Of a DNA stretch of 35,166 bases, positions 1,628 through 19,165 are shown piece by piece. Source of the DNA: Candidatus Omnitrophica bacterium 4484_171 (GTDB lineage: Bacteria; Omnitrophota; Gorgyraeia; Duberdicusellales; 4484-171); assembly GCA_002049895.1 (NCBI GenBank), contig MVCW01000002.1:1-35166 (forward strand), given 5' to 3'. How positions within the stretch are numbered: the first letter of the stretch is position 1; each line of letters starts with the position of its first letter. The notes under the pieces are model-generated. The model saw nothing but the letters and a program-made list of their open reading frames with translations, had not been told where the DNA came from and did not search any database. The translations under genes were made by a program, and so were the position numbers.

Positions 1628-1633
1628 ACATAA

Positions 1634-1715: not shown

Positions 1716-1804
1716 CTCCTTCGTCCTTCGGACTACGGCGGGCAGGCACCTCCTACGCTAAAGCTACGGCGGGCAGGCACCTCCTTCGTCCTTCGGACTA
1801 CGGC
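1716..1804. repeat. tandem repeat, about 2.7 copies of a 31-34 nt unit
   Basis: Unit ctccttcgtccttcggactacggcgggcaggcac at 1716-1749. Degenerate copy at 1750-1780. The first 24 nt recur exactly at 1781-1804. Lies in the dnaE-HU/IHF spacer. Confidence 0.9.
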
Positions 1805-1840
1805 ACAGCCTATATTCTGCGGCCTTAGAGCTTGCAGCCT

Positions 1841-5773: not shown

Positions 5774-6805
5774 TTAATGGAATGTGGATACGGCGGAAAA
5801 CGCTTTTATTTTATCAATCGTTCTTTTTATAACGCCTTCTAAATATGCAATACGCTCATCTTTCTTGCTTATCTGCTGCCTCAACTCTTCAACATCACTT
5901 TTGTTACCCTGTAACTGCTGGTTCAATTTCTTCTTCCATAAAGCAATCTCTTCATCTTTTTCCTTTAGCTTATCATTAAGTTCCTTGATTATACGGCTCT
6001 GGTTTGATGCAGACATTTTTTTTATCCTTACTTTCGCATTAATAATCTCTCTATCTTTAGCATCCAGTGCTTTAATTAAGCTCTCTATCTTCAACTGCAA
6101 CTTGCGTTCTTCTTCCGCCTTCTTGCTTTTCAAATCATTTATTTCTTCATTCTTTAATGCCACTAGACGGCTAAAATTCCTGATCTTATCTTTAAGTTTC
6201 TTTACCCGGGCTAATTTAACCCGGCCGGCATAATCAGTTTCCTTAGCGGAAAACTCATCTTTAAGACGAACTATTTCTTTATCTTTCTCTTCTAACTGCG
6301 TTTTAAGTTCCTCAATCTTCCGGCTTTGTTCCGGAGACGGTTTATACACAATTCTTTCTTTAACTGGCTGAATCACTTTACCTTCCGCGGAAAGCCTCTT
6401 GGAGAGTTTTGCCTTTAAATCATCTATTTCCTTATCTTTTAACCTTGATTCTTCTACGATTTCCGCCTGCATCTTACGAAGCTGAGTAACCTTACTTTCA
6501 AGTTTAGCTAATATATCTTTCATCTCAGGATGGACAACTGATGATTTTTCAGAAAGCGCTTCTCTTAATTTTCTGATTAATCCTTTATTTTCTTCTAACT
6601 GAAGAATAAACTTTGCTTTTTCGTTTTCTAAATCCTGTACTTTCTTCTGTAAAGATTTAATAACCGCTTTGGCGCTTGAGACATTACTGACTACACTGTC
6701 TATTTTGTTTCTAAACTCTTCCTCTAAACCCGCGGCATAAGAAGAAAGAGGACATAAAACAACCGCGCTTACAAAAATTAATTCCCATTTTGTGATTTTA
6801 CACAT
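5774..6805 (-). CDS. secreted coiled-coil protein of unknown function (last gene of the pilus locus)
   Basis: 343 aa. N-terminal signal-like segment MCKITKWELIFVSAVVLCPLSSYAAG, then almost continuous K/E/L-rich heptad sequence with six K(D/N)xEI motifs. Confidence 0.7.
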   Translation of the reverse strand: MCKITKWELIFVSAVVLCPLSSYAAGLEEEFRNKIDSVVSNVSSAKAVIKSLQKKVQDLENEKAKFILQLEENKGLIRKLREALSEKSSVVHPEMKDILAKLESKVTQLRKMQAEIVEESRLKDKEIDDLKAKLSKRLSAEGKVIQPVKERIVYKPSPEQSRKIEELKTQLEEKDKEIVRLKDEFSAKETDYAGRVKLARVKKLKDKIRNFSRLVALKNEEINDLKSKKAEEERKLQLKIESLIKALDAKDREIINAKVRIKKMSASNQSRIIKELNDKLKEKDEEIALWKKKLNQQLQGNKSDVEELRQQISKKDERIAYLEGVIKRTIDKIKAFSAVSTFH

Positions 6806-6878
6806 ACTATACCCCCGTAAGAAAATTATACTTCCCCTATGGGGTGGTTGTCAAACATTTTATAATTCAGGGTATGAA

Positions 6879-8087
6879 TTATGAAGGAGGAAAAGGGTCT
6901 GTAGGTTTAATTTCTTTCCAATCTATTATGTTGGCAATATAGGTTAGATATGGAATTGTAAGATTCGTGCTTAGAGTGTCATCGTAATTATACACTCGCG
7001 AGCTATAAGCATTGAGATTCACTGCTGACGAAGCGGAATCTTTTCCTCTCACGGCAATTGCTCCTGTAAAGTTTAAGGTGTCTTTGTCGCCCGGATTTCC
7101 CTTTGCTTCAAGCACTCCGCCGTCAGCACGGATAAAAGCATTGATAGTAAGATTATTCGGGGCCGAATCAGGAATAATGACGTCACCGGCTGCTGAAAGC
7201 CCCAGCTGAACTCCCGAATTACACGTAATATCGCCTTCTATATAAATATTGCCTGATGCGACAATATGCATCGATTCTGTAGTATTACCTGATATATGCA
7301 CATCACCGTCTACATAAATAACACCATTGGACGAGCTTAAGTCTGACCTGTCTATATCTCCGGAATATGAGAAATTGCCGTCAATTTTTCTTCCTCCGGT
7401 GGAGGCAACGTCGCTATAGTACTGCTTATCAACGCTGGAAAATGTGATGGGAGGAACATTGTTAACATCGCCGGTTATCGTTACTTTTGGGTCACTCTCA
7501 CCGTCTATGTTTCTTATATAATTAACATCGCCGGTTACTTTTATATTTCCGGTAGTAGGTTTAAAATAAACATCTCTTGCTAATATATCGCCGGTAAAAT
7601 TGGCTCCGCTTCGCGCTGTTATGTCGCTCAAAGTAGATATAAAAAAAGACGCGGGATTCTCAATGGCAACCTGGGCTAATATAACACGGGAAATATTCTG
7701 TGAGGGGTCTCTTGGATTTGTATACATCCCTTGAGACCTTATCCACACCGTAGGCCAGCTTCCAGAAACTGGTCCGTCAGCGACATTGGAGGTATAATGA
7801 CCCACAGTCTCTGTAGTCGTGCCGTCTGACCAAACTAAAGCTATATTGCTAAATCCAGTGCGCCACTTTTCATTTTTTCTTAGTTCAGATATAGAATTCT
7901 CAATACCCGCTTCAGCAGCATAAAACGCGTACAAAGACGCTATGCGCGTATCAACCGCCTTAAGCTGTATATTGGACCTCAGATAGGAAACACTTAAAAT
8001 TATCCCTAGGAAAAGCGCCAGGAATACGCTCGCAATCAAAACAAAACTTTTCTTCACGCTCTTTCTCCTTATTGGTTGCGAAAGCAT
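6879..8087 (-). CDS. PilX_N-type pilin-like protein with a C-terminal beta-helix-like repeat region
   Basis: N-terminus ...VKKSFVLIASVFLALFLGIILSV...FYAAEAGIE fits the PilX N-terminal pattern. The C-terminal half carries GD(V/I)-type repeats (VTGDVNYI, ITGDVNNV, VDGDVHISG, IEGDITC, AAGDVII). The true start is probably GTG 8057 (AAGGAG 7 nt upstream), which gives MKKSFVLIA.... Confidence 0.75.
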   Translation of the reverse strand: MLSQPIRRKSVKKSFVLIASVFLALFLGIILSVSYLRSNIQLKAVDTRIASLYAFYAAEAGIENSISELRKNEKWRTGFSNIALVWSDGTTTETVGHYTSNVADGPVSGSWPTVWIRSQGMYTNPRDPSQNISRVILAQVAIENPASFFISTLSDITARSGANFTGDILARDVYFKPTTGNIKVTGDVNYIRNIDGESDPKVTITGDVNNVPPITFSSVDKQYYSDVASTGGRKIDGNFSYSGDIDRSDLSSSNGVIYVDGDVHISGNTTESMHIVASGNIYIEGDITCNSGVQLGLSAAGDVIIPDSAPNNLTINAFIRADGGVLEAKGNPGDKDTLNFTGAIAVRGKDSASSAVNLNAYSSRVYNYDDTLSTNLTIPYLTYIANIIDWKEIKPTDPFPPS

Positions 8088-8566
8088 ATCTCAGTTGATG
8101 TTTTCACGTCTATATTACGGTTGAAAACCTTGTCTTTTAAAGCTAAATTTATAATAAAAGAATATGTGGTCGCATCAAACGAAGAGTCTGTATACCCTAT
8201 GTTTTTTGATAAAATCTTTGTTGTGCCGCCTGCGGCTTTTTGCAGCCATCCGTATGGCGAACCGCTAATAATAGAATACACAGATGATGTGCCATCAGGC
8301 AGATTCAAAGTTAAAACCTTATGGTTTGATGAAACAGCCGCGCTTCTAGCCAGTTTACCGCAAGAAGAAACATCATCTATAATATCATTGGCATCCTGCC
8401 ACAAATTAACGCGGGAAATCTGATTGTAAAACCCCGCCCAGTTTAATAAAAACGTCACATAAAACAGAGCTGATGTTATTCCTATTATAGCAACTACGGT
8501 AATTATCTCTATTAAGGTAAAAGCCTTATTCCCCTTTCTATATTTATTTATAAAATGATACACCAT
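8069..8566 (-). CDS. minor pilin / pseudopilin (prepilin-type N-terminal methylation domain)
   Basis: ...RKGNKAFTLIEIITVVAIIGITSALFYV is a class III signal peptide plus hydrophobic alpha-1 helix with Glu at +5. 165 aa. Confidence 0.8.
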   Translation of the reverse strand: MVYHFINKYRKGNKAFTLIEIITVVAIIGITSALFYVTFLLNWAGFYNQISRVNLWQDANDIIDDVSSCGKLARSAAVSSNHKVLTLNLPDGTSSVYSIISGSPYGWLQKAAGGTTKILSKNIGYTDSSFDATTYSFIINLALKDKVFNRNIDVKTSTEICFRNQ

Positions 8567-8638
8567 TCTTTATGAGTTGATAAAACAACTATGGACTTAA
8601 TTTATGAGTACACACGTCAAACTATACTGAGTAAATTC

Positions 8639-10807
8639 TTACATTCCACCGCCTGTCGTAAGTTTTATATTTCCAAGGTTTGTAGTCGTACCTGCGTTTA
8701 GTTTTATTGAACCCACGCTTTTAGAATCATAATTACTTTTCTCCACAGTCACAGAATGCCTTCTTGTAGTCTGATTGTAATAATTATTGCCAACGACTCC
8801 CGGAGGCGGCCAGGTCTCTATAACACCATCAAAAGTAAACCTGCCGCTGCCATTTGTATATTTAACAATACTGCCTCCGCTGTAGCGGTGCAAAGTGACT
8901 TTCGCGCCGCTTATGGGGCTGCCACCTGATGCGTCTACTACTCTTCCCTTTATAATTCCATAGCCTTCAGGCCAAAGATAAATCGGAGACTGCCAAGTTG
9001 ATACATTTGCCGCAATATGCGCCTCAGGCACATAAGCGGGATTATACCAATGGCTGCTCCCCCCCCAGTTATTTGATGTACTATCACAAGGATAATATCC
9101 GCCCCTGCTAGCTATAATTCGGCGTGTTCCTGTAACAATGGCGCACCCGCTGCCGCCGCTGCATTTAATTTCATAATATCCGCTATTGTTTGTAGCATAG
9201 TTCTTCCATCCGTAACCTGATATGTATATATCCACGTGCTCTATTCCAGATAATGTCTTGCCGTCTCTAACATAGCCTTTTGCGTCCCCGCAGGTATAGT
9301 CATTCGCTGCCGGCAGCTTAATAGTAACATCTCTTGTATCTCCCTCATGAAGAGAGCCGATATAATAGTAAGAACTATAAACTGTCTGCTGTCCTAAATC
9401 ATCACAACATGCCGTGTGCTGTACACCTGCCCTGCCCCTTATTACAATGTAATACCCAGTATTATTAGGAAACATATCCTGCTCGGCGGGAACACTTTCC
9501 TGCTTAAAGCCTCCTTCGTCAGTCGAATGCCATCCGCCGTGATAACCTTGCCGATTATGGTCGCTTCTTCTTTCCCATATACGGATTTCGCCTTGAATAG
9601 GCGCGTTGTTGCTGTCTATGAGATGTATTTTCAAAGTAGCCGTAGGAACAGTTACAAGCTTTATATCGCCTAAATCAAGATTCTGTCCGGGATTTACACA
9701 GATATAATCTGCTGCACTTGAACCAAGCCAGGGATTTGCGCAATTGCGTTCGCTCCCGTCAATATTCATTTGGGACGATGACCAGCCTCTATAGTTATAC
9801 GCCGTTCCGTAAGGACTACAAATATTTGTACAGTGATGATTATAAATATGGGGGTAATACCGCGTATCTGTACCTCGGCCTGTTATAACTGTAAAACATT
9901 TCTGGTCAGTATCAGTAAAATCAATTTTAAAATCAAAAGGATTTCCTGTATATGTCTTGTAACTTCCCTTCCGATAAAGAGACACGTATTGAGACAAGAC
10001 ACTTCCGATAAACCTCCCTTTTATATGCGCAGGAGTCGGCAGGGGGTCTAAAGAAATATCTGCCGTTGTAGACTGAGAAGAATATACATCAACATAATGG
10101 CCGCTGTGTTCGGCGCTATAAGTATAATCGTAATATGCCGGATGAGTAACAGTAATTTCCCATTGGCCCGGTTTAAGACGAAAAATAACAGTGCCGCCGG
10201 TGCCTGTTTCCGCGAAAGTATATTTTCCTGAACTATCGCTGGCTGTGGTATAAGAGATATCGAAACTGCCGGTTGTATCGTTATAATGCCTGGCGGTAAC
10301 ATTGGCGTTGGCTACAGGGCTACCATTATTAGAATCAGTAATTGTGCCCTCTATGTTTCCCGGAAGAGGCTCAGGCGGCCTTGATAATAAAAGCGCAAAA
10401 TGATAATCGCGCGCGTTGCCTCTTTCTGTCCAATTTACAGTCACATCCGCTTTCTTAAAATCACTGCTTCCAGCAACAGGGCTAATGGAAATACTGCGGG
10501 TAAAACCGGGGAAATCGGAAGATAAATCAGAAAATGTATGGCTTTCTAGCGTATCGAAATCAGTATGCGCCTGAGCCCTTACTTCCTCTAAACTGCGTTC
10601 GGCTAAATCATAAGCTATGCTTCTATTGCGTGAATCCTCAACCGCCCGGGAAACTACCACAAACGAAGAATAAGCGCCTGCACTTACAATGGCAATCAGC
10701 ACAGCGCTTACAAGAACCTCAATAAGAGTAAAACTCCTGGCAACTTTGATGCTGTGGCTTCTTTTATATAAGAAATGATGAATGCTTTTTAAATTTGTTT
10801 TTAGCAT
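8639..10807 (-). CDS. large modular pilin: PilV/GspI-like pilin module fused to tandem carboxypeptidase-regulatory-like beta-sandwich domains
   Basis: ...IKVARSFTLIEVLVSAVLIAIVSAGAY is a prepilin motif. Downstream are IEGTITDSNNGSPVANANVTA and IKGRVVDASGGSPISGAKVTLH...GSGRFTF (CarboxypepD_reg-like), plus 2-3 weaker copies and a Cys/Tyr/Gly-rich core. I place the start at ATG 10807; the ORF track extends to GTG 10849. Confidence 0.8.
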   Translation of the reverse strand: MLKTNLKSIHHFLYKRSHSIKVARSFTLIEVLVSAVLIAIVSAGAYSSFVVVSRAVEDSRNRSIAYDLAERSLEEVRAQAHTDFDTLESHTFSDLSSDFPGFTRSISISPVAGSSDFKKADVTVNWTERGNARDYHFALLLSRPPEPLPGNIEGTITDSNNGSPVANANVTARHYNDTTGSFDISYTTASDSSGKYTFAETGTGGTVIFRLKPGQWEITVTHPAYYDYTYSAEHSGHYVDVYSSQSTTADISLDPLPTPAHIKGRFIGSVLSQYVSLYRKGSYKTYTGNPFDFKIDFTDTDQKCFTVITGRGTDTRYYPHIYNHHCTNICSPYGTAYNYRGWSSSQMNIDGSERNCANPWLGSSAADYICVNPGQNLDLGDIKLVTVPTATLKIHLIDSNNAPIQGEIRIWERRSDHNRQGYHGGWHSTDEGGFKQESVPAEQDMFPNNTGYYIVIRGRAGVQHTACCDDLGQQTVYSSYYYIGSLHEGDTRDVTIKLPAANDYTCGDAKGYVRDGKTLSGIEHVDIYISGYGWKNYATNNSGYYEIKCSGGSGCAIVTGTRRIIASRGGYYPCDSTSNNWGGSSHWYNPAYVPEAHIAANVSTWQSPIYLWPEGYGIIKGRVVDASGGSPISGAKVTLHRYSGGSIVKYTNGSGRFTFDGVIETWPPPGVVGNNYYNQTTRRHSVTVEKSNYDSKSVGSIKLNAGTTTNLGNIKLTTGGGM

Positions 10808-10931
10808 ACACACCTTCCCTTTCCCACTCCTTCTTATTATACAAACCACACTTTATATGGATAATCTGGTATAATGCCTTATTTTAACAGTAATTGCTCG
10901 GTATAAGCTACTGCCTCCCCCTTTCCTTTCA

Positions 10932-10961
10932 TTTATACCATATTTTTATTATATTTTTCAA
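10932..10961 (-). promoter_or_regulatory. candidate promoter for the modular-pilin sub-operon
   Basis: Minus strand reads TTGAAA (10961..10956), an 18-nt spacer, then TATAAA (10937..10932), within the 170-bp gap after the secretin gene. Confidence 0.3.
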
Positions 10962-11019
10962 AAGGACAATACAGCTTAAGCAAAGCCTTAAAAGCGGCTA
11001 TTTGGACAGAAACAGACAG

Positions 11020-12411
11020 TTATCGGGATACCACTGTGGGAGTAACAGTAATAATCAGTTCTGAGTTAGCCACGGTATGGTGGTTATATTTAAATAGATT
11101 ACCGAAGAGAGGAACACTGCCCAGCATGGGAACCTTATATAAGGTATTTTTATCTTCTTTGGTAAGAAGGCCTCCCAATACAAAGGGCTGTTTATTGTTT
11201 ACGCGAACATAAGCGGTAGCTTTTCTTGTTTTTACCCAGGGGTATTCATCATTAGGGCCGCGCCAGCCATATATATAACTAACCTCCGGCTCTATCTTTA
11301 TCACAACAAATTCTTTGTCAATAATCGAAGGGGTAATTTTAAGGCTTATGCCCGGCGTAACAAACCTCACCTCAGTAGAAGCCACACCGCCGGTTACCGT
11401 AGTAATTGTATAGGGAACCTCGTCCCCAACGAAAATCTCCGCCTCTTTATTGTTAATCGTAGCAACACGCGGATTAGAAAGCACTTTTGCTTTATCTTCG
11501 GTCTCAAGCATCTTTAATACTGTATTAAAAGCAATGGCACTGCGTGATAATTTATATACCCTGAAAACCGAGCCCATATTAGATGCCGTATCGCTAAGGG
11601 CAAGCGGACGTTTTGATTCCTGAAAAGCTGCAGTTATGGAATCAGACCAGTCTATGCCTAATTCCCTTAAAGCGTCTCTGTTTATTTCAATAATCTTTGC
11701 CTCCAGTATCACCTGAGGCTGAGGCTTATCAAGATTATATAGAATCTCTTCGGCTTTGTTAACGCCTTGGGGAGTACCCGTAATAACCAAAGTGTTTATC
11801 TCTGAACTTTTATTTATAGTATCAACCAATTTGTCTATTAAGCCCTCGGCTTCATCAACACTGACATTTCTTAACTTAATAACTCTGGTCACAACCGTTC
11901 CTGATTTTATCTTAGCTTTTGACGCTACAAACAGAGAATTACCTATCTGATAAGAACCGAGGCTATAAGCATTGTAAAGAAGATTTAGAGCCTCTTCAAT
12001 GGGGGTATTGTTAAGATGAATATCTACCTTTTTGCCTTTAAGGGCGGGGTCCAATACTATATTAAACCCGCCTGCTTTGCCGATACTCATTAAAACATCT
12101 TCTAAATTAGCCTTCTGGAATTCTAAATTCATTTTCTTATTCCTGTTTTTGGGGGCTATCAGGCTTCTTGCGATATCTCTCGGCGTAATCACTCTTGTAG
12201 GTACAGACATTTCTCCGGGAATGCTATTTCGGGAAACCTTCAAAGAAATCTCGTGCGCCTGCTCAAGAAGTTTATCTATGTCATTCTCTACTGCCTGGCT
12301 GCGTTTTATCAGCCCCTCGGTACCAGAGGCATCATCCTTATCTGCCCATGAATAGTCTGCGGCTAAAAACATAACTAATACCAATAAAATAATTTTCTTA
12401 TTCATTTTCAC
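11020..12411 (-). CDS. pilQ: secretin (PilQ/GspD family), short form
   Basis: Signal peptide MKMNKKIILLVLVMFLAADYSWA. C-terminal secretin signature LSNPRVATINNKEAEIFVGDEVPY ... VPMLGSVPLFGNLFK. 463 aa. Confidence 0.9.
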   Translation of the reverse strand: MKMNKKIILLVLVMFLAADYSWADKDDASGTEGLIKRSQAVENDIDKLLEQAHEISLKVSRNSIPGEMSVPTRVITPRDIARSLIAPKNRNKKMNLEFQKANLEDVLMSIGKAGGFNIVLDPALKGKKVDIHLNNTPIEEALNLLYNAYSLGSYQIGNSLFVASKAKIKSGTVVTRVIKLRNVSVDEAEGLIDKLVDTINKSSEINTLVITGTPQGVNKAEEILYNLDKPQPQVILEAKIIEINRDALRELGIDWSDSITAAFQESKRPLALSDTASNMGSVFRVYKLSRSAIAFNTVLKMLETEDKAKVLSNPRVATINNKEAEIFVGDEVPYTITTVTGGVASTEVRFVTPGISLKITPSIIDKEFVVIKIEPEVSYIYGWRGPNDEYPWVKTRKATAYVRVNNKQPFVLGGLLTKEDKNTLYKVPMLGSVPLFGNLFKYNHHTVANSELIITVTPTVVSR

Positions 12412-12850
12412 CTCCCACTTTTAATACTATCTTTTTTCTGCCCTTAGCTAAGACTACGCTGTCTTTATTTATTCTCATCACTATATAATTTCCTATGCTA
12501 TCCCCCTCTTTAAAGGCTCCTGTCTTAAGAGGCGACTCTAACAGGGCAACAGAATTATCGCCCAGTATAACAACACCTATTAATTTCAGTTCTGTTCCGA
12601 TATTAATATCAGCGGATTCCCCGTTGTTATAAAAAACCTTTCCCAAAAGAGGCATAAAAGGGTCTTTGGTAAAAGTAAATTTATAGGGCCTAGGATGAAG
12701 TATAGCCTTAGCAAGACTGACTTCCTTTACCGTGTTAACGGGCTTGCTCTCGGTATGCGTATTAGCCTGTATCTTACGTTTAATCTTCGTGCATCCGGAA
12801 GCCGATAAAACAGCACCGGCAGCCATAAATATTATAATAACTTTTATCAT
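12398..12850 (-). CDS. pilP: PilP-like pilus assembly lipoprotein
   Basis: Lipobox LSASGC. 150 aa. PilP-like beta-domain pattern (FTKDPFMPL...LKLIGVVILGDNSVALLE...GDSIGNYIVMRINKDSVVL). Its position between PilO and the secretin supports the call. Confidence 0.65.
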   Translation of the reverse strand: MIKVIIIFMAAGAVLSASGCTKIKRKIQANTHTESKPVNTVKEVSLAKAILHPRPYKFTFTKDPFMPLLGKVFYNNGESADINIGTELKLIGVVILGDNSVALLESPLKTGAFKEGDSIGNYIVMRINKDSVVLAKGRKKIVLKVGGENE

Positions 12851-13470
12851 CTTCTGTCTTTTAGCTCACTGCCGCTTTTAAGGCTGTAAAGCCTTAGGGT
12901 AAATTTACACCTCAATAAAGGATATTTCTTTATTCTTATTTCAACGTTACTCAACGTAATGAGCTGACGGTATCCTTCTAAGAAAACCAGAAAATTTACT
13001 ATTGACGAAAATCTTCCCTCTATTCTTATGTCTATAGGCATCGCCGCAAGAAAAAGCGGCTTATCTTCTTTGTTACCAGACGGCTTATTCCCGGAATAAC
13101 TATTGCCCGATGTAGAATTCTTCGGTTCAACTTTCTTAAACTTTCGGGTTTTCATCTCCGATATCTTTATATGAGACTTCCTGGCAATCAAAGATATCTC
13201 CTCTAAAAATGAAGATACATCCCTGTCGTTAAAAAGAATCCCTTCCAGCTCTTTCTTCTGTGTTCTATATTTTATGATGAAATCTCTATAATTATTTTCA
13301 TCGTTCCTCAAGCGCATTGTCTCATATTGGCCCGCGCTAATCCTGTTCTGGTACTTTTTACACTTAAACACAGGCAAAGACACCAAAATTCCATAAATTA
13401 CTGTAATAACCGCACAGCCCGCCAGTGCTGTAATCTTTATCCGAAAAAAAGATAACTTACTTTTTTTCAT
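12847..13470 (-). CDS. pilO: PilO-like inner-membrane pilus assembly protein
   Basis: One N-terminal TM segment, a coiled-coil stretch and a C-terminal alpha/beta domain (PIDIRIEGRFSSIVNFLVFLEGYRQLITLSNVEI). 4-nt overlap with pilP and 14-nt overlap with the upstream gene. Confidence 0.65.
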   Translation of the reverse strand: MKKSKLSFFRIKITALAGCAVITVIYGILVSLPVFKCKKYQNRISAGQYETMRLRNDENNYRDFIIKYRTQKKELEGILFNDRDVSSFLEEISLIARKSHIKISEMKTRKFKKVEPKNSTSGNSYSGNKPSGNKEDKPLFLAAMPIDIRIEGRFSSIVNFLVFLEGYRQLITLSNVEIRIKKYPLLRCKFTLRLYSLKSGSELKDRR

Positions 13471-14944
13471 CGGAATTACGTTTTAAATCGGCTACAATGC
13501 CAAAGCTAAAAATATTTCTATCTTCTATTTTTATCTCTCTTAAAAAATCAAATTTGGCATTCTGAAGCACTGATGATTTGTATATCTTGCGCATAAGCTT
13601 GGCAACTGATTCTATTTTGAAAGCACTGCCTTTTATCTCAACTTTACCCGACTCCGGAACCTTGAAAGAAGCCAAAGACAGCTCATCAGGTAATTCAGCG
13701 GCCACCTCCCCAAAAACCCTGGACCACGATATGCGGTTAAGGTTCCTTACAAAAGTCGCCTGTTCAAGCAGGCGGCTGCGCATATCAAGGAACTCATCTC
13801 TTTCTTTCTTAAGCCTGGCTGTTTCCTGCCTTAATTTATTGTTCTGAGCATTAATTTCTCCTAGCTGCTGCGTTAGCCTCTTTTCTTTGGCACTGTAGAT
13901 AATAAAAGTCTTTACCGCAAAAATACTAATCAAAGCAATATACAATACGGAAGCAAAAACGGCCTTTTTTAGATAACTTTTCAGCTTGCTTTTAGCTAGA
14001 AAATGGCTGAAGGCAAACATGCTATTAATTTTCTTTATATGAGCAATTGGCCCGCAGCAGCCTAAGAAATATATAGGATTAAATTCCTCATCGTATTCCT
14101 TCCTGAAACCGGTTATATCACCAATAGATAACTCACTAATTTCGTGGTCTCTCATCTCGCTGTCTAAAAGTTCCGCTAAATCGGAAGCTTTTGTGTTGTC
14201 CCAAATAAACCACACTTTTTTTATCGTTTCTTTTTTATTCTCTATAGCGTAAGACTTGAGTATGCGGTCTAATTCATCCACCCAGTGCAGTAACGCCGAA
14301 TTGTTTATCTTTCCGTCACTGTAGGGATACAAATCAATTTTCCCCGTGCTCATCATGTAGAAGAACCGGCACTCTTTTTTATCGGAAACAATAATGTAGC
14401 TTTGGCGCTGGCCCAAAACAAGCAAGGCTTCTTCCTTGGCTGTCGCGGGCAAGTTTGGCAGGATATTAAGAAGATTTAAGGGGGCAATCTCCAAACTTTC
14501 AAGGGACAGCTTAACCGCTTCTACGCCTTTTACAATAGAATCTAATATATCCCGGCGTATAGCGGAAAAAGTAATCTCAAGGCGGTTTAAACCAGTAGCA
14601 TAACCGCGGTATATGTAATCAAATTCTTTATCAGCAAAAACCGGCGCCTTCTCTATCTCTCCGGCAATAACTTCGTCCAGTTCCTGCCTAGGCATTTTAG
14701 GAAGATTAATCTGGTGGGTAATAGTCTCAGGCGTAAAAACGGTTACAAACGCTTTTAGTGGAGATATTTTTTCTTCGGAAATGATTTTGTGTACACTTTC
14801 GCTTACTGAGGAAGAAGAAAGCACCCCTTCATCAAAAGGCACGGAACCAGCTTTAGAGCAAAGAATCACCCCTGCTTTTCTTTCCAGATAAGCATATATT
14901 ATGCTATCAGCGCTGAACACTAAGCCCAAAAAACCTCTGGCCAT
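13457..14944 (-). CDS. PilM-PilN fusion protein (GspL-like architecture)
   Basis: The N-terminal ~320 aa are actin-like and PilM-like. Then comes a TM segment (AVFASVLYIALISIFAVKTFIIY), a coiled coil, and a PilN-like periplasmic domain (WSRVFGEVAAELPDELSLASFKV...VEIKGSA). Confidence 0.8.
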   Translation of the reverse strand: MARGFLGLVFSADSIIYAYLERKAGVILCSKAGSVPFDEGVLSSSSVSESVHKIISEEKISPLKAFVTVFTPETITHQINLPKMPRQELDEVIAGEIEKAPVFADKEFDYIYRGYATGLNRLEITFSAIRRDILDSIVKGVEAVKLSLESLEIAPLNLLNILPNLPATAKEEALLVLGQRQSYIIVSDKKECRFFYMMSTGKIDLYPYSDGKINNSALLHWVDELDRILKSYAIENKKETIKKVWFIWDNTKASDLAELLDSEMRDHEISELSIGDITGFRKEYDEEFNPIYFLGCCGPIAHIKKINSMFAFSHFLAKSKLKSYLKKAVFASVLYIALISIFAVKTFIIYSAKEKRLTQQLGEINAQNNKLRQETARLKKERDEFLDMRSRLLEQATFVRNLNRISWSRVFGEVAAELPDELSLASFKVPESGKVEIKGSAFKIESVAKLMRKIYKSSVLQNAKFDFLREIKIEDRNIFSFGIVADLKRNSDEKK

Positions 14945-14950
14945 AAAATA

Positions 14951-15322
14951 TTAAAGATGCGTATCCGGCCAAGCGCTAAAATGCGTGGATTTATCTACCT
15001 GGTATCCGTTATTGTTATCTCCTATAAGAGTATAAGCTACCCCGAAAGGACACACGGGCTGGTCCGCAATAGTATGGGCCCCGTCTCCATCTACATCAGG
15101 ATAATAGGGGTATAAATTTGCCAAAGCATTACAGTTAGCCCAGCTTCTGTTTTCTGAATAGCACATCTGAAGGGCAGTGTTGATAGTGCGGATATTAGAA
15201 GCGCAGGTTTTGGTATTCGCCTGCCTTATCGCCCTTAAGGTATTGGGCAAAATAAGAGCGACTAATATACCGATGATAACTAAAACTACCAGAAGTTCGA
15301 TTAAAGTAAAAGACTTTTTCAT
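14951..15322 (-). CDS. major pilin / GspG-like pseudopilin
   Basis: MKKSFTLIELLVVLVIIGILVALILPN... is a class III signal peptide with a very short leader. 123 aa. Strong SD AAGGAGG 5 nt upstream. Four Cys residues in the globular part. Confidence 0.9.
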   Translation of the reverse strand: MKKSFTLIELLVVLVIIGILVALILPNTLRAIRQANTKTCASNIRTINTALQMCYSENRSWANCNALANLYPYYPDVDGDGAHTIADQPVCPFGVAYTLIGDNNNGYQVDKSTHFSAWPDTHL

Positions 15323-15355
15323 CCCAACCTCCTTTTTTACTCCCTATACCATTTT

Positions 15356-15384
15356 AGTATAACATAAAATCTGCAAGAAAACAA
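15356..15384 (-). promoter_or_regulatory. candidate internal promoter for the major pilin gene
   Basis: Minus strand reads TTGTTT (15384..15379), a 17-nt spacer, then TGtTATACT (extended -10, hexamer at 15361..15356), in the 66-nt pilC-pilin spacer. Confidence 0.35.
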
Positions 15385-15388
15385 CAAT

Positions 15389-16600
15389 CTAACCGTGTAT
15401 GCCCTGCCATATACTGAATATCGGAAGATATATAGAAACAAGAATAAAGGCCACCAAACCTCCCACAAATATTATCAGTATCGGCTCAAGATATGTCAGG
15501 AATTTATCCAGCCGGGCGTCCAGCTCTTCTTCCAGATACACAGCTACTTTATCGAGCATATCGGACAACGTTCCGCTTTTTTCCCCTACCGCGACCATCT
15601 CAACTAAAAGCGTTGGGAATTCCCTGGCTTTTTCCATAGCATCGCTTAAGGAATCGCCTTCCGTAATTTTTACTTTTACAAAGTCGACAGCTTCTTCAAT
15701 ATATTTATTTACAACTGTGGCTTTGGAAACCTCAAGACTTTTAACTACGGGCAGACCGGAATTAAGAAGAAGGCCCAAAGAACGGACAAATCTTCCCATT
15801 GAAGCAACATAATTAATCCTGCCAAAAATAGGAAGTTTTAACTTCAGACGGTCTATACCGAGGCGGCCGGAATAAGTAGAAGAAATTGTTTTATATATAA
15901 AGACCGCAATGGATACCAACGCAACAGCAATTATCCAGAAATATACAGACCTCATAAGATGAGAAATATCCACAACTATTTGGGTAACAAGAGGAAGAGA
16001 TACATTAATTTTTGAAAATACCTTCTGAAATGTAGGAACAACCAGGGTAAACATCAGAATTACCACTATAATAGCGAACACCACGACTATTAAAGGATAT
16101 GTAATTGCCCTCTTTATCTTTGCTACAAACTGCTGCTGGTCAGTAAGGTATCCTACAAGTTTCTTGAGAATCGGCGCAAGGCCGGCGCCTGTCTCGGCCA
16201 CGGATAAAAGAGAACGGTACATAACAGGAAAAACCCTGGGAAATTCGTTTATAGCCTCAGACAGGCTCTTCCCGCTGTTTAAACTGTTCTTTATCTGGCT
16301 GATAATAAGCTGCATCACGGGGTCGGTCATCTGCTTCCAAATAATATCCAGCCCCAAGAGTATAGGAAGGCCTGATTCAATCATAGCGCTAAGCTGGTGT
16401 GTGAACATTAAAAGAGTATCCAGTCTTATCCTGACTCCGGAAATATTAGTCTTGGATTTTCGGTGTTGCGGGGAAACCGTAACAACATAATAACCGCCTA
16501 CGCGCAATTTTGCCTTGGCGGCTTTTACATTATCCGCCTCTATGACACCCGTAAATGGTTTGCCGGAGGAATCTCTTACTTTGTAAACAAATGTATTCAT
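15389..16600 (-). CDS. pilC: type IV pilus / T2SS platform protein (PilC/GspF family)
   Basis: 403-aa polytopic protein with the duplicated GspF motif (GKSLSEAINEFPRVFP and GDSLSDAMEKAREFP). TAATG overlap with pilB. Confidence 0.93.
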   Translation of the reverse strand: MNTFVYKVRDSSGKPFTGVIEADNVKAAKAKLRVGGYYVVTVSPQHRKSKTNISGVRIRLDTLLMFTHQLSAMIESGLPILLGLDIIWKQMTDPVMQLIISQIKNSLNSGKSLSEAINEFPRVFPVMYRSLLSVAETGAGLAPILKKLVGYLTDQQQFVAKIKRAITYPLIVVVFAIIVVILMFTLVVPTFQKVFSKINVSLPLVTQIVVDISHLMRSVYFWIIAVALVSIAVFIYKTISSTYSGRLGIDRLKLKLPIFGRINYVASMGRFVRSLGLLLNSGLPVVKSLEVSKATVVNKYIEEAVDFVKVKITEGDSLSDAMEKAREFPTLLVEMVAVGEKSGTLSDMLDKVAVYLEEELDARLDKFLTYLEPILIIFVGGLVAFILVSIYLPIFSIWQGIHG

Positions 16601-18321
16601 TACTTATAAACTCTTTCTACAAACGTTACCCTCATTACTTCTTCCATAGAAGTAACTTTATCCAGAGCTTTCTTGATGCCGGATGCTTTTAATGTATTCA
16701 TCCCTCTGGATACGGCCAATTCAGTAATTTCAGGTTCATTGGCTCTTTTTAAAACTAATTCCTGGATACCTTCTTCTACCATTAAAATTTCAAATATGCC
16801 TACTCTGCCTTTGTACCCTAGACCATGGCATTTCTCGCATCCTGACGGTTTAGCCAAAATTAACTCATTGGCAGAAGAGGGAATCAAGGGGGCTATTTTA
16901 TTTTTTATCTCTTCAGACACAACACTCTCTTTTCTGCAGAAAGGACACAACTTTCTCACAAGACGCTGGGCAATAACCCCTTTTACGGAAGAAGCAATAA
17001 GAAACGGTTCCACATTCATATCCAAAAGCCTGGTAATCGCGCCGGGAGCACTGTTGGTATGCAAAGTAGACAGCACTAAATGTCCCGTTAAAGCTGCCTG
17101 AATAGCAATCTCGGCAGTCTCTAAATCTCTTATTTCCCCAATCATTATTACGTCGGGGTCCTGCCTTAGAATATGCCTGATAGCCGTAGCAAAGGTATAA
17201 CCCGCACGTACATTTATAGCAGTTTGATTCACACCATCCATCTCATACTCTACGGGGTCCTCTACGGTAACGATACTGCGAGAAGAATCATTTAATATAT
17301 TAAGCATAGAGTAAAGAGTCGTAGTCTTTCCGCTGCCTGTTGGTCCTGTAATCAAAATCATCCCATAGGGCTGGTGAATAAGGAATTCAATCATATCAAG
17401 CTCATTCTCATCCACCCCCAGTTTTTCCAAAGAAATAATTGCATTTTTCTTATCCAGAAGCCTTAACACCACTTTCTCTCCGAATATATCCGGAAGAGTA
17501 GAAACTCTCACGTCAAATTCACGGTCTCTTTTCCTCAAACTTATTCTTCCATCCTGAGGTTTCCTCCTTTCGGCGATATCCATTCCGGAAATAATCTTAA
17601 TACGCGATGTAACTCCCGGCTGAAGCTTCTTAGGAATAATCACTTTCTCATAGAGAATACCGTCTATACGGAAACGCACGCGTAAATTTTCTTTTTGCGG
17701 CTCAAAATGAATATCCGAAACCCCCTGCTCCATTGCTTCGGCAACAATAGAATTAACCAGTTTAATTACCGGCGCTTCCTCTGCCGCGGCGGCTTCAGCT
17801 TCCACAGACTCCTCTTTTTGTTGGGCGCTGGAAGTGTCAATGTCCGTAGCAATATCTTTTATAGCCTCCTGAGCTGAATGCATAGGCCCATAGTATTTAT
17901 TGAGCAGAATTCCTATATCCTTAGAAACCGCCATCATCGGTTTTATCCTGCAGCCGCTTATATACCCCAATTCTCTGAACGCTGATATATTCAAGGGGTC
18001 ATTTGTAATTATAAAGAGGTTGTCATCCTGTATCTTAACAGGGACTATATTATACTTTTTAAGCAGTTCATAGGAGAATATTCTGAGAACATTCTCTTCT
18101 ATCTCTATTTTTAACGGATTCACAACCGGAAGAAGGTACTGCCGGGCTAACACCTCAATTATCTGCCTCTCTGCAACAAAACCTTTCTCTATCAACACCT
18201 CTCCCAGCTTTTTCTTGCTTTTCTTCTGCTCTTCCAAAGCTTCAGAGAGCTGGCTTCTGTCTATAATCCCATGGTTAAGCAGCAGCTCTCCCAATTTCAG
18301 GTTTCTATCTTTTTCTCCCAT
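16600..18321 (-). CDS. pilB: type IV pilus assembly ATPase (PilB/GspE family) with an MshEN-type N-terminal domain
   Basis: Walker A GPTGSGKTT, Asp/His boxes, tetracysteine CPFC...CEKC, and an N-terminal tandem KLGxxLLxxGxIxxxxLxxxLxxQ motif. Confidence 0.95.
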   Translation of the reverse strand: MGEKDRNLKLGELLLNHGIIDRSQLSEALEEQKKSKKKLGEVLIEKGFVAERQIIEVLARQYLLPVVNPLKIEIEENVLRIFSYELLKKYNIVPVKIQDDNLFIITNDPLNISAFRELGYISGCRIKPMMAVSKDIGILLNKYYGPMHSAQEAIKDIATDIDTSSAQQKEESVEAEAAAAEEAPVIKLVNSIVAEAMEQGVSDIHFEPQKENLRVRFRIDGILYEKVIIPKKLQPGVTSRIKIISGMDIAERRKPQDGRISLRKRDREFDVRVSTLPDIFGEKVVLRLLDKKNAIISLEKLGVDENELDMIEFLIHQPYGMILITGPTGSGKTTTLYSMLNILNDSSRSIVTVEDPVEYEMDGVNQTAINVRAGYTFATAIRHILRQDPDVIMIGEIRDLETAEIAIQAALTGHLVLSTLHTNSAPGAITRLLDMNVEPFLIASSVKGVIAQRLVRKLCPFCRKESVVSEEIKNKIAPLIPSSANELILAKPSGCEKCHGLGYKGRVGIFEILMVEEGIQELVLKRANEPEITELAVSRGMNTLKASGIKKALDKVTSMEEVMRVTFVERVYK

Positions 18322-18664
18322 TAGACTTTTTATCCTTCCATACTTTATAAATATAATCTAATATTTCGGCCTTGCCCGAAGCGTCTATTTCTTTTATCTT
18401 TAATCCCATTTCTACATCTCTATCGCCTGAGGATATCCAGATTATTTTTCCATGAATCAGCACAGGACTGTATCTGTTAGGAAGAAAAACTTTCAGCTCC
18501 ACACTATTATCAGGAATGGAGTCATTGGAAGGAATTGAAACTCTTAAGCCCTCGCGGGAAAAATCTAAGGCTTGACCCCGCGAAGATAATGCTATATTGC
18601 CCTTTGCCGACAGCTCTACCCTCAAAGGGACATTGAAACGGATAAACTTCCTTCTTTTTTTCAT
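18305..18664 (-). CDS. PilZ domain protein
   Basis: 119 aa with RRKFIR (RRxxxR) at residues 4-9 and DFSREG (DxSxxG) at 34-39. Overlaps the pilB start by 17 nt. Confidence 0.85.
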   Translation of the reverse strand: MKKRRKFIRFNVPLRVELSAKGNIALSSRGQALDFSREGLRVSIPSNDSIPDNSVELKVFLPNRYSPVLIHGKIIWISSGDRDVEMGLKIKEIDASGKAEILDYIYKVWKDKKSNGRKR

Positions 18665-18866: not shown

Positions 18867-19165
18867 TTAAACATTCGTAAGAGAAGAGGCGTTGCGGGAA
18901 AATATATTTTCTTTTAAACGGCGAGGTATACCGATATTATTCAGCGCATTTATGTCTTTTCTCTGGTCAATGAGGGGAAAATCCGTCCCAAAAAGTATTT
19001 TATCCTCAGGGCGGCCGCTGATAAAAGGTGCAATCTCATCTTTAGGAAGATAATCAAAGAAAAAATCGGTATCTAAGTAAATATTTTTGCCTAAAAGGTG
19101 TTTTTTTACTTCATCCCGCATCCTAAAACCTCCAAAATGGGCGGCAATAACCTTAAGATGGGAAA
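18867..19165 (-). pseudogene. amidohydrolase-family gene, C-terminal ~100 codons only, truncated by the IS
   Basis: The frame stays open above the ORF-track Met: ...KFSHLKVIAAHFGGFRMRDEV...KILFGTDFPLID. These are the metal-dependent hydrolase motifs (aH-x-GG, fGtDfP). The frame runs directly into the IS inverted repeat, and no N-terminal half lies beyond the IS. Confidence 0.6.

Follow-up and report, generated by a model that had tools for sequence, protein, structure and literature searches.

The stretch of DNA that was analysed (35,166 nucleotides; hereafter the window) contains, between positions 5774 and 18664, a run of twelve predicted open reading frames, all of which (12/12) were confirmed and all of which lie on the minus strand. 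Eleven of these genes make up a cassette encoding PilZ, PilB, PilC, a 123-aa pilin, a PilM-PilN fusion, PilO, a PilP-like lipoprotein and a secretin, followed by a 722-aa pilin, a 165-aa pilin and a 402-aa PilX-like beta-helix protein (p402). The original prediction that all twelve genes form one mostly overlapping unit holds for these 11 conserved genes, and 6 of the 11 junctions in the run are overlapping; however, the twelfth gene, which encodes a coiled-coil protein, is outside this unit. Some 20 further loci from metagenomes or MAGs contain this conserved pilus/T4F gene unit; they keep the gene order from PilB through p402, and their proteins show 26-65% identity. Those DnaE relatives that carry names are all from Omnitrophota (59-70% identity), and the named MAGs bearing the cassette are likewise all labelled Omnitrophota. 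The window accordingly comes from the chromosome of an Omnitrophota bacterium. The locus is a real, conserved type IV pilus cassette of these uncultured ultra-small organisms. Most of the domain assignments proposed earlier were confirmed by Pfam profiles, the exceptions being PilX_N in the 402-aa protein and the 150-aa lipoprotein, both of which are considered below.

The cassette begins with a PilZ-domain protein of 119 aa (18305..18664; Pfam PilZ 47.6 bits), in whose sequence the RxxxR (R5-R9) and DxSxxG (DFSREG) motifs are retained, and its gene overlaps pilB by 17 nt. A PilZ gene is found directly upstream of pilB in four of the six informative loci (viz. the window, L004, L039 and L042) and is absent from this position in L001 and L045. 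The PilB-type extension ATPase (573 aa; 16600..18321; Pfam T2SSE 468.6 bits, MshEN 60.6 bits) carries in its N-terminus (residues 9-61) an MshE-type pair of c-di-GMP-binding motifs, for which the model NF053729 gives 70.7 bits against a cutoff of 38. Among family models it scores 642 bits with TIGR02538 PilB versus 594 bits with GspE, and its nearest solved structures are those of Geobacter and Myxococcus PilB (513-518 bits) versus 428 bits for GspE. The platform protein of the PilC/GspF type (403 aa; 15389..16600; two Pfam T2SSF domains, 193 bits) has three hydrophobic segments and scores 343 bits with GspF and 293-314 bits with PilC models, reaching the cutoff of no model. The 123-aa major pilin which follows (14951..15322; N_methyl 28 bits) has the leader MKKS preceding FTLIE. 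It had been described as a GspG-like subunit and this description is appropriate for its N-terminal helix, to which the GspG/ComGC likeness is confined, but not for the remainder of the protein, as the match to TIGR01710 GspG spans residues 4-63 only and its 49 bits are below the cutoff of 88.85. The C-terminal half, which carries a DVDGDG motif, is variable among the orthologues.

The next four genes encode the components of a putative alignment complex and the outer-membrane channel. The PilM-PilN fusion (495 aa; 13457..14944) matches Pfam PilN at 32.3 bits and PilM_2 at a sub-threshold 22.5 bits on the same protein, in agreement with the GspL-like fusion that was predicted. It consists of a cytoplasmic PilM-like domain, a TM segment at about residues 325-352, which is its single hydrophobic segment, a periplasmic coiled coil and a PilN domain, a topology resembling that of GspL; weak matches to pilM/Amuc_1101 are also seen, and fused orthologues of 485-514 aa are present across all cassette loci. 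PilO (207 aa; 12847..13470; Pfam PilO 30.3 bits) has an N-terminal TM segment and is syntenic throughout these loci. The 150-aa lipoprotein (12398..12850) has no Pfam match, and its assignment as PilP-like is based on its lipobox, which ends in an invariant G18-C19 behind a signal sequence, and on weak matches of its family profile. In the PDB, this profile matches only PilP (4av2_M, 2ivw) and the GspC HR domain (3oss, 2lnv), weakly (E 0.009 to 0.72), and the match to GspC_delta has E 1.5e-5; the C-terminal domain is of the PilP/GspC HR type. The secretin (463 aa; 11020..12411; Secretin 146.7, Secretin_N 28.5 and STN 23.9 bits) is made up of N0/STN, one Secretin_N and the secretin domain, with no AMIN domains recognised by Pfam. 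Its scores with the PilQ and GspD models are 207.5 versus 204.7 bits, and among solved structures PilQ is the nearest, with 128 bits as against 104 for GspD. A short secretin cannot be regarded as a trait of this system, as the orthologues vary in length between 443 and 702 aa.

The gene for the secretin is separated from that for the large pilin by an AT-rich gap (10808..11019), which has the predicted length of 170 bp if a GTG start at 10849 (giving a product of 736 aa) is used, and 212 bp if measured to the ATG chosen by the gene caller, which yields the 722-aa product. The orthologous gap is much shorter in most loci (26 bp in L003 and L004, 104 bp in L001), and an internal promoter may be located here. 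At the other end of the cassette, the gene for a secreted coiled-coil protein of 343 aa (5774..6805) is preceded by a 73-bp gap containing a perfect match (12/12) to the sigma-70 consensus TTGACA-18-TATAAT (6825..6854; a consensus match only). This gene adjoins the cassette only in the closest relative, L034 (73% identity), and no homologue was found downstream of the cassette in L001-L010, L035, L041 and L045. By these comparisons it is a separate, lineage-specific gene with its own promoter-like site, and not a part of the conserved unit as had been supposed.

The 722-aa protein (8639..10807; N_methyl 25.7 bits; CarboxypepD_reg 78.2 bits over three stretches) is a modular minor pilin. As anticipated, its N-terminus is that of a pilin, with a genuine class III signal (ARS followed by FTLIE) including Glu5. 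Its pilin module, which spans roughly residues 26-145 and resembles PilV/GspI (with weak matches), is followed by approximately five beta-sandwich domains of the CarboxypepD_reg/CnaB-like type, covering some 577-600 residues, and the AF2 model (pLDDT 80) likewise depicts a pilin module carrying a beta-sandwich stalk. In Foldseek searches the stalk matched Gram-positive pilins, TIE and the MG domains of alpha-2-macroglobulin, and its domains resemble those of Gram-positive pilus adhesins. Of the 88 full-length representatives of this family, 75 possess the signal and E5, and a GWSS motif, several Cys residues and ETWPP are conserved. Conservation is even over all domains, with no hypervariable region; in this it is unlike many host-range adhesins, an observation that counts against a role in attachment.

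The two genes that follow encode the 165-aa minor pilin (8069..8566; N_methyl 24.2 bits) and p402 (6879..8087; 392 aa according to the gene caller). The former has Glu5 (E19 is invariant in the family alignment), it matches solved pilins only in the N-terminal helix, and it is assigned as the PilW/GspJ-position subunit solely by its location between the PilV-like and PilX-like genes. The assignment of p402 to the PilX/GspK position is based on its AF2 model (pLDDT 92.9, pTM 0.83), its motif and its location. Its pilin-like N-terminal helix bears the conserved motif AFYAAEAG and is joined to a sheet of four strands and, at the C-terminus, a right-handed beta-helix; its domain matches are to FapA/Bactofilin/DUF7305 beta-solenoids, and its best Foldseek matches are DUF3494 ice-binding beta-helices (E 5e-4). 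Glu5, present in all three pilins, is missing from the p402 family. The earlier designation of this protein as PilX_N/beta-helix is correct with respect to the PilX-type motif and the beta-helix; however, Pfam PilX_N does not match the window's protein and matches only 4 of 26 family members, all below threshold, whereas the proteins at this position in L027 and L028 score above the cutoff. In neither the 722-aa protein nor p402 did Foldseek recognise a lectin, vWA or other ligand-binding domain, the matches being limited to stalk-type beta-sandwiches and the beta-helix, which likewise counts against a role in attachment.

It had been suggested that the usual set of minor pilins is here replaced by two very large proteins. 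However, the last three genes keep the ordinary T4aP order (PilV-like, PilW-like, PilX_N-type), and the same triad ending in a PilX_N protein is seen at canonical T4aP loci from Halanaerobacter and Peptococcaceae and at Omnitrophota loci of a second type. The PilX-position proteins of other phyla are 346-570 aa long, thus a length of about 400 aa is normal, and it is only the PilV-like subunit that is enlarged, from about 105-170 aa elsewhere to about 700 aa here.

Among all ORFs of at least 100 aa in the window, neither pilT nor pilD was found, searches with an ATPase HMM and for a peptidase motif added nothing, and neither gene is present in cis in any of about 20 related loci. In the same scan, a PilT-like ATPase was detected in the control loci L019, L023, L027, L028 and L029, and the peptidase motif in L023, L027, L029 and L031. 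These results support the original prediction that no retraction ATPase or prepilin peptidase is encoded here, and PilY1 is also absent from the locus, as was claimed. The locus is, however, not self-contained, because the prepilin peptidase has to come from elsewhere in the genome. The PilM-PilN fusion, the absence of pilT and pilD in cis and the lack of PilY1 are real and conserved architectural traits. Canonical T4aP controls, in which PilT is present and PilM and PilN are separate, show the same near-tie between PilB and GspE and similar GspF/PilC scores, and because this near-tie recurs in bona fide T4aP systems, hybridity at the sequence level is unsupported. Judged from these scores and from the nearest structures, which are PilB and PilQ, what looks T2SS-like in the ATPase, platform and secretin is a model artefact.

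Based on these results, we consider it reasonably probable that the locus codes for a type IV filament machine which derives from T4aP and is specific to Omnitrophota, most likely a surface pilus that serves for attachment. The prepilins would be processed by a peptidase encoded elsewhere, and a priming or tip complex composed of the 722-aa PilV/GspI-like, the 165-aa PilW/GspJ-position and the 402-aa PilX/GspK-position subunits would form at the PilC platform. In known pilus tip complexes a Glu5-less subunit acts as the cap and assembly proceeds from the tip onward (PMC10191384). As p402 lacks Glu5, it would therefore cap the fibre, and it is the predicted tip cap. Beneath this complex the 123-aa major pilin would be polymerised by the PilB hexamer. 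Since PilB carries the MshE-type c-di-GMP motif and its translation is in many cases coupled to that of a canonical PilZ receptor, c-di-GMP probably switches it on. The growing fibre would be pushed through the PilMN-PilO-PilP alignment complex and then the secretin, and its tip would display to a ligand the acidic beta-helix and the string of about five beta-sandwich domains (approximately 577 residues). The ligand, possibly a glycan, would probably be some conserved structure at the surface of a host cell, a prey cell or a substrate, and any retraction would depend upon a PilT encoded elsewhere. The stalk of about 600 residues on the tip subunit probably serves attachment, and a fibre displaying adhesive modules is plausible by analogy, as it fits the published concept of modular pilins (PMC8179133). 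T4aP are nearly universal in Omnitrophota, where attachment to host cells is their proposed role (PMC10066038).

The cassette could also be read as a T2SS-like system, in which a short periplasmic pseudopilus with a large I-J-K-type cap pushes folded exoproteins (e.g. glycoside hydrolases) through the secretin and never becomes a surface pilus. We regard this as unlikely, although the fusion (as in PulL) and the lack of PilT and PilY1 are markers separating T2SS from T4aP according to the review by Pelicic, and these shared traits count against a surface pilus. The N-terminal helix of the major pilin and the platform protein also score best with the GspG and GspF models, respectively, T2SS/T4P genes and glycoside hydrolases border the loci for giant proteins in Omnitrophota, and the window itself has a GH5 gene at a distance of 9 kb. 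However, the GspG likeness is limited to residues 4-63 and is below cutoff, the GspE and GspF scores are equalled in bona fide T4aP controls with PilT, and the ATPase scores higher with the PilB than with the GspE model, the nearest solved structures being PilB and PilQ. Further, there is only a PilP-type lipoprotein, a GspC bearing a PDZ or coiled-coil domain being absent, the secretin has N0 and one N domain instead of N0-N3, no GspH, GspM-specific or GspN matches were obtained, and a stalk of about 577 residues on a tip pseudopilin has no obvious periplasmic role.

A pilus for DNA uptake (competence), with p402 as the DNA receptor at the tip similar to ComZ of Thermus, is somewhat more doubtful still. 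ComZ is the sole PDB sequence match of the p402 family profile (AFYAAEAG..W motif, E 0.048), the two proteins share an architecture of PilX_N-type helix plus beta-solenoid (for ComZ, PMC8179133), and organisms with small genomes often rely on scavenging. However, this match is marginal and does not extend beyond the generic PilX_N motif, ComZ is absent among the 50 Foldseek matches listed, of which the best are ice-binding-type beta-helices, and the globular part of p402 is acidic (pI 4.5). The window contains no comEA, comEC or dprA, and DNA uptake requires retraction, whereas PilT is not linked to the cassette in any locus. It is very improbable that the cassette produces an e-pilus, an electrically conductive filament serving extracellular electron transfer, even though a sparse occurrence of conductive pilins has been predicted for Omnitrophota (PMC10066038) and the major pilin is short, its mature form having 119 aa, of which 11.8% are aromatic or His. 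However, at its N-terminus there is an aromatic-free gap of 49 residues, exceeding the length allowed by the published criteria for e-pilins; in addition, no multihaem cytochromes are encoded in the window, and the conserved large tip proteins would be left unexplained.

The attachment pilus that we favour is a lineage-specific variant of a well-known machine and no new kind of system, and both T4aP in Omnitrophota and modular pilins of the pilin+PF13620 type have already been published. With the T4aP of Myxococcus, Thermus and Pseudomonas, and those of L027 (Halanaerobacter jeridensis) and L028 (Omnitrophota), the cassette shares a PilB-type ATPase, PilC, PilM/PilN/PilO modules, a PilP-type lipoprotein, a PilQ-type secretin (N0, N1 and secretin domain), a major pilin with a class III signal and the PilV-PilW-PilX-like order. 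It differs from them in that PilM and PilN are fused, pilT and pilD, present at canonical loci, are not in cis in about 20 loci, PilY1 and a fourth minor pilin of the FimU/GspH type are lacking, the PilV-like subunit is about 700 aa versus about 105-170 aa, the secretin has no AMIN domains, and PilC and the secretin are further from the family models than those of the controls. The T2SS (Gsp/Pul) resembles the cassette in possessing a counterpart of the fusion (GspL), in lacking PilT and PilY1, in its I-J-K-type tip trimer with an enlarged, Glu5-less K subunit, and in its GspG-like pilin helix. However, the ATPase and secretin of the cassette are nearer to PilB and PilQ, a PilP lipoprotein is present instead of GspC, the secretin has one N domain versus N1-N3, no Gsp model cutoff is reached, and the tip pilin bears a large stalk.

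The MSH pilus is likewise a T4aP derivative without a linked PilT, and the cassette ATPase has the MshE-type N-terminal c-di-GMP motif (NF053729, above cutoff). However, MshEN c-di-GMP-binding motifs also occur outside MSH systems, the secretin scores only 138 bits with the MshL model (cutoff 250), lower than with PilQ, and the locus has no MshN (TPR) or MshM gene. With ComZ of Thermus thermophilus, a beta-solenoid minor pilin (PDB 6QVI), p402 has in common the AFYAAEAG..W PilX_N-type motif, a pilin-like sheet, the beta-solenoid and a gene at the end of the minor-pilin operon, but the similarity (E 0.048) is marginal and confined to the motif, and the acidic beta-helix of p402 is closer to DUF3494 folds than to any listed ComZ match. 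Lastly, the 722-aa pilin shares with modular pilins (viz. PilB and PilC of Streptococcus sanguinis, CofB, and the pilin+PF13620 proteins of Raynaud et al. 2021, PMC8179133) the combination of a pilin module at the N-terminus, including a class III signal, with grafted non-pilin modules, PF13620 (CarboxypepD_reg) being among the domains most frequently grafted on pilins and thought to add binding functions (PMC8179133). However, the carrier in this case is a conserved core minor pilin at the PilV/GspI position of a diderm machine, it bears some five beta-sandwich domains in tandem, whose central, GWSS/Cys-rich region is conserved, and its family of 88 clusters is tied to one fixed cassette.

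The twelve ORFs of the original prediction are all present at 5774-18664, where they read in the same direction on the minus strand and overlap at 6 of their 11 gene junctions. Pfam searches confirm the PilZ protein, the ATPase (T2SSE and MshEN domains), the platform protein (T2SSF), PilO and the secretin (Secretin, Secretin_N and STN domains), and N_methyl is found in the 123-aa, 722/736-aa and 165-aa proteins; as a description of the locus the prediction is largely correct, and its interpretation holds in part. When gene neighbourhoods collected via the 722-aa protein (the large pilin), the 402-aa protein (p402) and the 495-aa PilM-PilN fusion (PilMN) were scored by tblastn and family HMMs, a fixed cassette was found to recur in about 20 loci at 26-65% identity, in the order PilB, PilC, pilin, PilMN, PilO, PilP, secretin, the ~700-aa and ~170-aa pilins and the ~400-aa protein. 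The named genomes carrying this cassette are Omnitrophota, or MAGs loosely labelled 'Planctomycetia', and all named relatives of the DnaE of the window (59-70% identity) belong to Candidatus Omnitrophota/Omnitrophica. Of the 6 loci having upstream sequence, 4 (viz. the window, L004, L039 and L042) have PilZ immediately 5' of PilB, and it was not found directly upstream of PilB in L001 and L045. However, the coiled-coil protein, which had been counted as the twelfth member of the unit, does not belong to it: among the cassette loci compared, a homologue is present only in the closest relative (L034, 73% identity), and the gene has a perfect match to the TTGACA-18-TATAAT promoter consensus ahead of its own coding start. 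It is an adjacent lineage-specific gene outside the machine.

As predicted, no retraction ATPase or prepilin peptidase is encoded at the locus, and the same holds for the ~20 related loci: the window and all of the cassette loci, flanks of up to 10 kb included, lack both a second, PilT-like ATPase and a prepilin-peptidase motif. The peptidase was sought by Pfam scans and by a motif scan. The same scans are positive in control loci, as a PilT-like ATPase adjoins in L019, L023, L027, L028 and L029 and the peptidase motif is present in L023, L027, L029 and L031, so that the lack of both in cis is a conserved trait of the cassette. One relative (L035) has additional opposite-strand genes directly downstream of the cassette (11573-15273, minus strand), for a further pilin of 161 aa and for a protein of 982 aa in which T2SS-T3SS_pil_N, CarboxypepD_reg and SdrD_B domains are combined.

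The flanks of the window consist of housekeeping genes (hisS, dnaE, nadE, trx, lgt, dtd, queH and others), and tRNA and Rfam scans of the window gave no match. Directly upstream of pilZ, at 18867-20445 on the minus strand, lie a degraded ISL3 transposase, made up of a Zn_ribbon_ISL3 ORF (20116-20445), a DDE_Tnp_ISL3 ORF (19428-19919) and a third, out-of-frame C-terminal fragment reaching to about 19200, and an adjoining 84-aa remnant of the C-terminus of an Amidohydro_2 protein (18867-19121, minus strand). This region looks like an old IS insertion that broke an amidohydrolase gene. At 30141-31752 on the plus strand, speD (AdoMet_dc, 139 aa), speE (spermidine synthase) and a 119-aa AdoMet_dc paralogue stand in a row; SpeD paralogues neofunctionalised as ornithine or arginine decarboxylases have been described in a study in which Omnitrophota are mentioned (PMC10407285). 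A 293-aa ORF with no Pfam match (1320-2201, plus strand), which overlaps dnaE at its 3' end in antisense orientation and occupies most of the 528-bp spacer between hisS and dnaE, is probably spurious. A gene of the GH5 cellulase family (27717-28892, minus strand) lies amid the housekeeping genes at a distance of about 9 kb from the cassette, and it would be of relevance only if the cassette served a T2SS-like secretion.

The machine was originally read as a hybrid of type IV pilus and T2SS parts. The best match of its ATPase is the PilB model TIGR02538 (642 bits, under the equivalog cutoff of 675.65), compared with 594 bits for GspE (cutoff 630), and the platform protein scores 343 bits with GspF (cutoff 424) and 293-314 bits with PilC models. 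However, in the T4aP control loci L027 and L028, where PilT is adjacent and PilM and PilN are separate, PilB scores of 641-649 bits on TIGR02538, the same level as that of the window protein, stand against GspE scores of 586-633, and GspF scores of 406-417 against PilC scores of 367-425. Scores of the controls with Gsp models are in general similar to or above those of the cassette, and because the controls show the same pattern, the near ties of PilB with GspE and of PilC with GspF were dropped as evidence of hybridity. The solved structures closest to the ATPase and the secretin of the window are PilB and PilQ. The secretin itself is a near tie (PilQ 207.5 bits, cutoff 284, versus GspD 204.7 bits, cutoff 351), with a layout in Pfam of N0, N1 and secretin domains and no AMIN domains; it had been described as characteristically short, but its orthologues in cassette loci range from 443 to 702 aa, and shortness is not a trait of the cassette.

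For the alignment proteins, no GspL or GspM family was matched at E <= 0.01; the matches are to PilN and PilO, both above the Pfam cutoffs, and to PilM_2, which is sub-threshold. In PilMN the PilM_2 match is N-terminal and the PilN match C-terminal, and between the two halves there is exactly one hydrophobic segment (residues 325-352), so that by domain order and membrane segment the protein does have a GspL-like topology. The 150-aa ORF has no Pfam match and a GspC_delta match (E 1.5e-5). We accept it as a putative PilP-like lipoprotein, because in its family a Gly-Cys pair is invariant where the signal sequence ends, and the family profile matches in the PDB only PilP and the GspC HR domain, weakly. 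The GspG-like character of the 123-aa major pilin (14951-15322, minus strand) stands as regards its generic N-terminal helix, to which the likeness is confined, whereas the GspG score of 49 bits is below the cutoff of 88.85 and the rest of the protein is not covered. At position -1 of its cleavage site this pilin has Ser (MKKS, then FTLIE), and Gly takes that position in 7 orthologues. DxDGDG-type, calcium-loop-like motifs were observed within the variable C-terminal half of the major pilins of several cassette loci (the window, L004, L005 and L006), though not of all, and L005 has several copies. The hybrid claim is borne out by the architecture, which shares T2SS traits, and not by the sequence affinities as scored against the T4aP controls; judged by these scores, the cassette is not a T4P/T2SS hybrid at the sequence level.

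That the 722-aa protein is a pilin, on which the original prediction depended, is upheld. Its leader ends in Ser and is followed by FTLIE, N_methyl scores 25.7 bits against a cutoff of 21.2 (the class III signal, or IPR012902 motif, with Glu5), and the N-terminal helix has weak PilV/GspI similarity. Pfam further reports three CarboxypepD_reg stretches (PF13620, 78.2 bits). In an AF2 model (pLDDT 80), the alpha-1 helix (residues 28-83) and a small pilin sheet (102-142) are followed by about five beta-sandwich domains, for which Foldseek returns stalk-type Ig/CnaB-like folds of Gram-positive sortase pilins, TIE proteins and macroglobulin MG domains; these are generic beta-sandwich stalks and are uninformative on the ligand. 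Relatives of the protein are full-length only, 16 being found by a word-indexed search and 88 representatives (50% clustering) by an exhaustive profile search. In an hmmalign alignment of the 88 members, conservation is even across all domains, and the conserved positions of the central region include a GWSS motif and several cysteines. The class III signal with Glu5 is recognisable in 75 of the 88, and these 75 have G (33), A (31), S (10) or C (1) at -1. Together with the Ser of the major pilin, this may point to a prepilin peptidase of relaxed -1 specificity in Omnitrophota. The profile also matches giants of 1,000-6,300 aa with up to 65 tandem beta-sandwich copies (P0078, P0102, P0106, P0113 and others), for which a relationship to the giant ORFs described from this phylum is possible.

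The 165-aa protein is likewise a pilin, with Glu5 invariant in the family alignment. Its family profile matches the generic pilin N-terminal helix in the PDB and nothing else, and its assignment as PilW/GspJ is therefore made from gene position alone. The predicted PilX_N/beta-helix character of p402 was only partly recovered. An AF2 model (pLDDT 93, pTM 0.83) combines a helix with a four-stranded sheet and a beta-helix of right-handed sense, its Pfam matches are of beta-solenoid type (FapA, Bactofilin and DUF7305), and its family has a G/S-F-x-L N-terminus lacking Glu5 as well as a PilX_N-type motif (AFYAAEAG); however, PilX_N itself (PF14341) has no match in the window protein and matches only 4 of the 26 family members, all of them below the cutoff. 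By sequence, p402 matches in the PDB only ComZ (E 0.048), via the PilX_N-type motif. Its weakly scoring structural matches are DUF3494 ice-binding beta-helices, and ComZ, GspK and PilX are not among the 50 Foldseek PDB matches listed. Membership of p402 in ComZ was rejected as ComZ is not among these 50 matches, and the relationship is retained as an analogy.

If these proteins are compared with those of other phyla, the three minor-pilin family HMMs match consecutive genes in ordinary T4aP loci. These come from a cultured organism, Halanaerobacter jeridensis (L027), from Peptococcaceae (L023 and L029), from a MAG labelled 'Planctomycetia' (L033) and from Omnitrophota, where the locus is of a second type (L028). 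In all five the order is a PilV-like protein of 122-171 aa, a PilW-like protein of 184-258 aa and then a protein of 346-421 aa, and the third product in L027 and L028, which is matched by the p402-family HMM, passes the Pfam PilX_N cutoff. Over the whole set of loci from other phyla, the PilV-like pilin ranges over about 105-170 aa and the PilX-like protein reaches 570 aa. This comparison indicates what the three 'cargo' genes are, and the cassette therefore appears to keep the standard core minor-pilin module. Hence the earlier view that two very large proteins have replaced the usual minor-pilin set should not be maintained: the order of the triad is kept, a length of ~400 aa is usual for the third protein, and the sole expansion is that of the PilV-position pilin, about five-fold. 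The genes are in I-J-K order, the third member lacking Glu5, and there is no H-type pilin and no PilY1 in the locus. According to Pelicic 2023 (PMC10191384), minor pilins form a priming complex located at the tip, with a Glu5-less cap, and assembly proceeds from tip to base; because the minor-pilin complex so capped is placed there, the beta-helix of p402 and the stalk of the large pilin would, by analogy, sit at the tip of the fibre.

Two signatures of c-di-GMP are seen in the cassette. Residues 9-61 of PilB match a model of the MshE-related c-di-GMP motif (70.7 bits, cutoff 38), and the PilZ proteins of the window and L004 keep both canonical c-di-GMP-binding motifs, whereas the PilZ proteins of Pseudomonas and Xanthomonas bind PilB and not c-di-GMP. 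Given the PilB motif together with those of PilZ, it is reasonable to suppose that c-di-GMP would gate PilB extension.

The best-supported reading of these results is that the cassette builds an adhesive, tip-decorated surface pilus, and we consider this to be probably correct. The architecture would also allow a T2SS-like pseudopilus; however, the sequence affinities and the large stalk count against it, and such a function is unlikely. A DNA-uptake pilus of the ComZ kind appears more improbable still, as the beta-helix domain is acidic (pI 4.5) and there are no com genes nearby and no linked PilT. The possibility of an e-pilus is very slight, and the e-pilin reading was rejected on account of a 49-residue aromatic-free gap in the major pilin. 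We suggest with considerable reserve that the cassette might represent a type IV filament subclass of its own, confined to the phylum, which would have taken the architectural steps of T2SS and MSH systems (fusion of PilM with PilN, loss of a linked PilT and lack of PilY1) independently while keeping a surface pilus. It would then be a c-di-GMP-gated attachment organelle, non-retractile or retracted in trans, docking ultra-small Omnitrophota onto hosts or prey via the ~600-residue stalk on the PilV-position pilin.

Omnitrophota are abundant, uncultured and ultra-small bacteria, which are suspected of being parasites or predators. In nearly all of their genomes TXSScan annotates T4aP, and these pili, being among the few features proposed for contact with hosts, have been proposed to serve in host-cell attachment, although the tip proteins are not described in that work (Seymour et al. 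2023, PMC10066038). The combination of a pilin with PF13620 is one of the most frequent modular architectures reported by Raynaud et al. 2021 (PMC8179133), where ComZ, CofB and GspK are also treated as modular pilins. Both T4aP in Omnitrophota and PF13620 modular pilins being already published, the general ideas behind the finding are known and no new principle is involved. The present work adds the delineation of a fixed cassette, the finding that the stalk is carried by the PilV-position pilin, the separation of the cassette from the canonical T4aP type of the phylum (L028, from a different MAG), the consistent absence of a linked pilT or pilD and a putative dual c-di-GMP signature. Contact is likeliest to be made by the 722-aa pilin with its stalk and by the 402-aa protein, the predicted beta-helix cap, at which antibodies, binding assays, cryo-ET and host identification could now be directed. 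The cassette also documents a T4aP-derived machine with a PilM-PilN fusion and without linked PilT or PilY1. As these are the steps usually invoked for the transition from T4aP to T2SS/MSH systems, it could inform the origin of the latter.

With regard to known systems, the cassette shares with T4aP a PilB-type ATPase and the PilM, PilN, PilO and PilP alignment sub-complex, but the fusion of PilM with PilN is atypical and PilT, the defining acquisition of T4aP (PMC10191384), is not encoded in cis. A second, more canonical T4aP locus, at 3994-18466 of L028 (Omnitrophota MAG JAUYOH010000158.1), is observed to have two tandem full-length PilB paralogues and an adjoining PilT; its PilM is separate, its PilV-like pilin is small (171 aa), and one of its proteins joins PilX_N to DUF4900. 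T4P loci of at least two different types thus occur in Omnitrophota. The T2SS is distinguished from T4aP by the PilM-PilN fusion (PulL), the loss of PilT and the absence of PilY1 (PMC10191384), all of which are shown by the cassette, at least in cis. It differs from the T2SS, however, in having a PilP-type lipoprotein in place of GspC, with an HR-like domain only, neither a PDZ domain nor a coiled coil, and PilP as its best PDB profile match, and a secretin with a single N domain (one Secretin_N in Pfam) in place of the N0-N3 series of GspD; the equivalog cutoffs for GspD, GspE, GspF and GspG are not reached. With the MSH pilus it has in common the MshE feature of its ATPase (NF053729), but the MshEN c-di-GMP motif also occurs outside MSH systems, the MshL score of the secretin (138 bits, cutoff 250) is below its PilQ score, and no TPR (MshN) or ExeA-like (MshM) gene is present in the locus. 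The Akkermansia Amuc_1098-1102 cluster and the 'Verru_Chthon cassette' of Verrucomicrobia were rejected as relatives, their NCBIfam models scoring 27/650, 68/750 and 28/70, far under the cutoffs. The large pilin agrees with the modular type IV pilins of Raynaud et al. 2021 in its class III signal and its grafted non-pilin modules, and the cassette as a whole is a lineage-specific variant of a known, T4aP-type machine.
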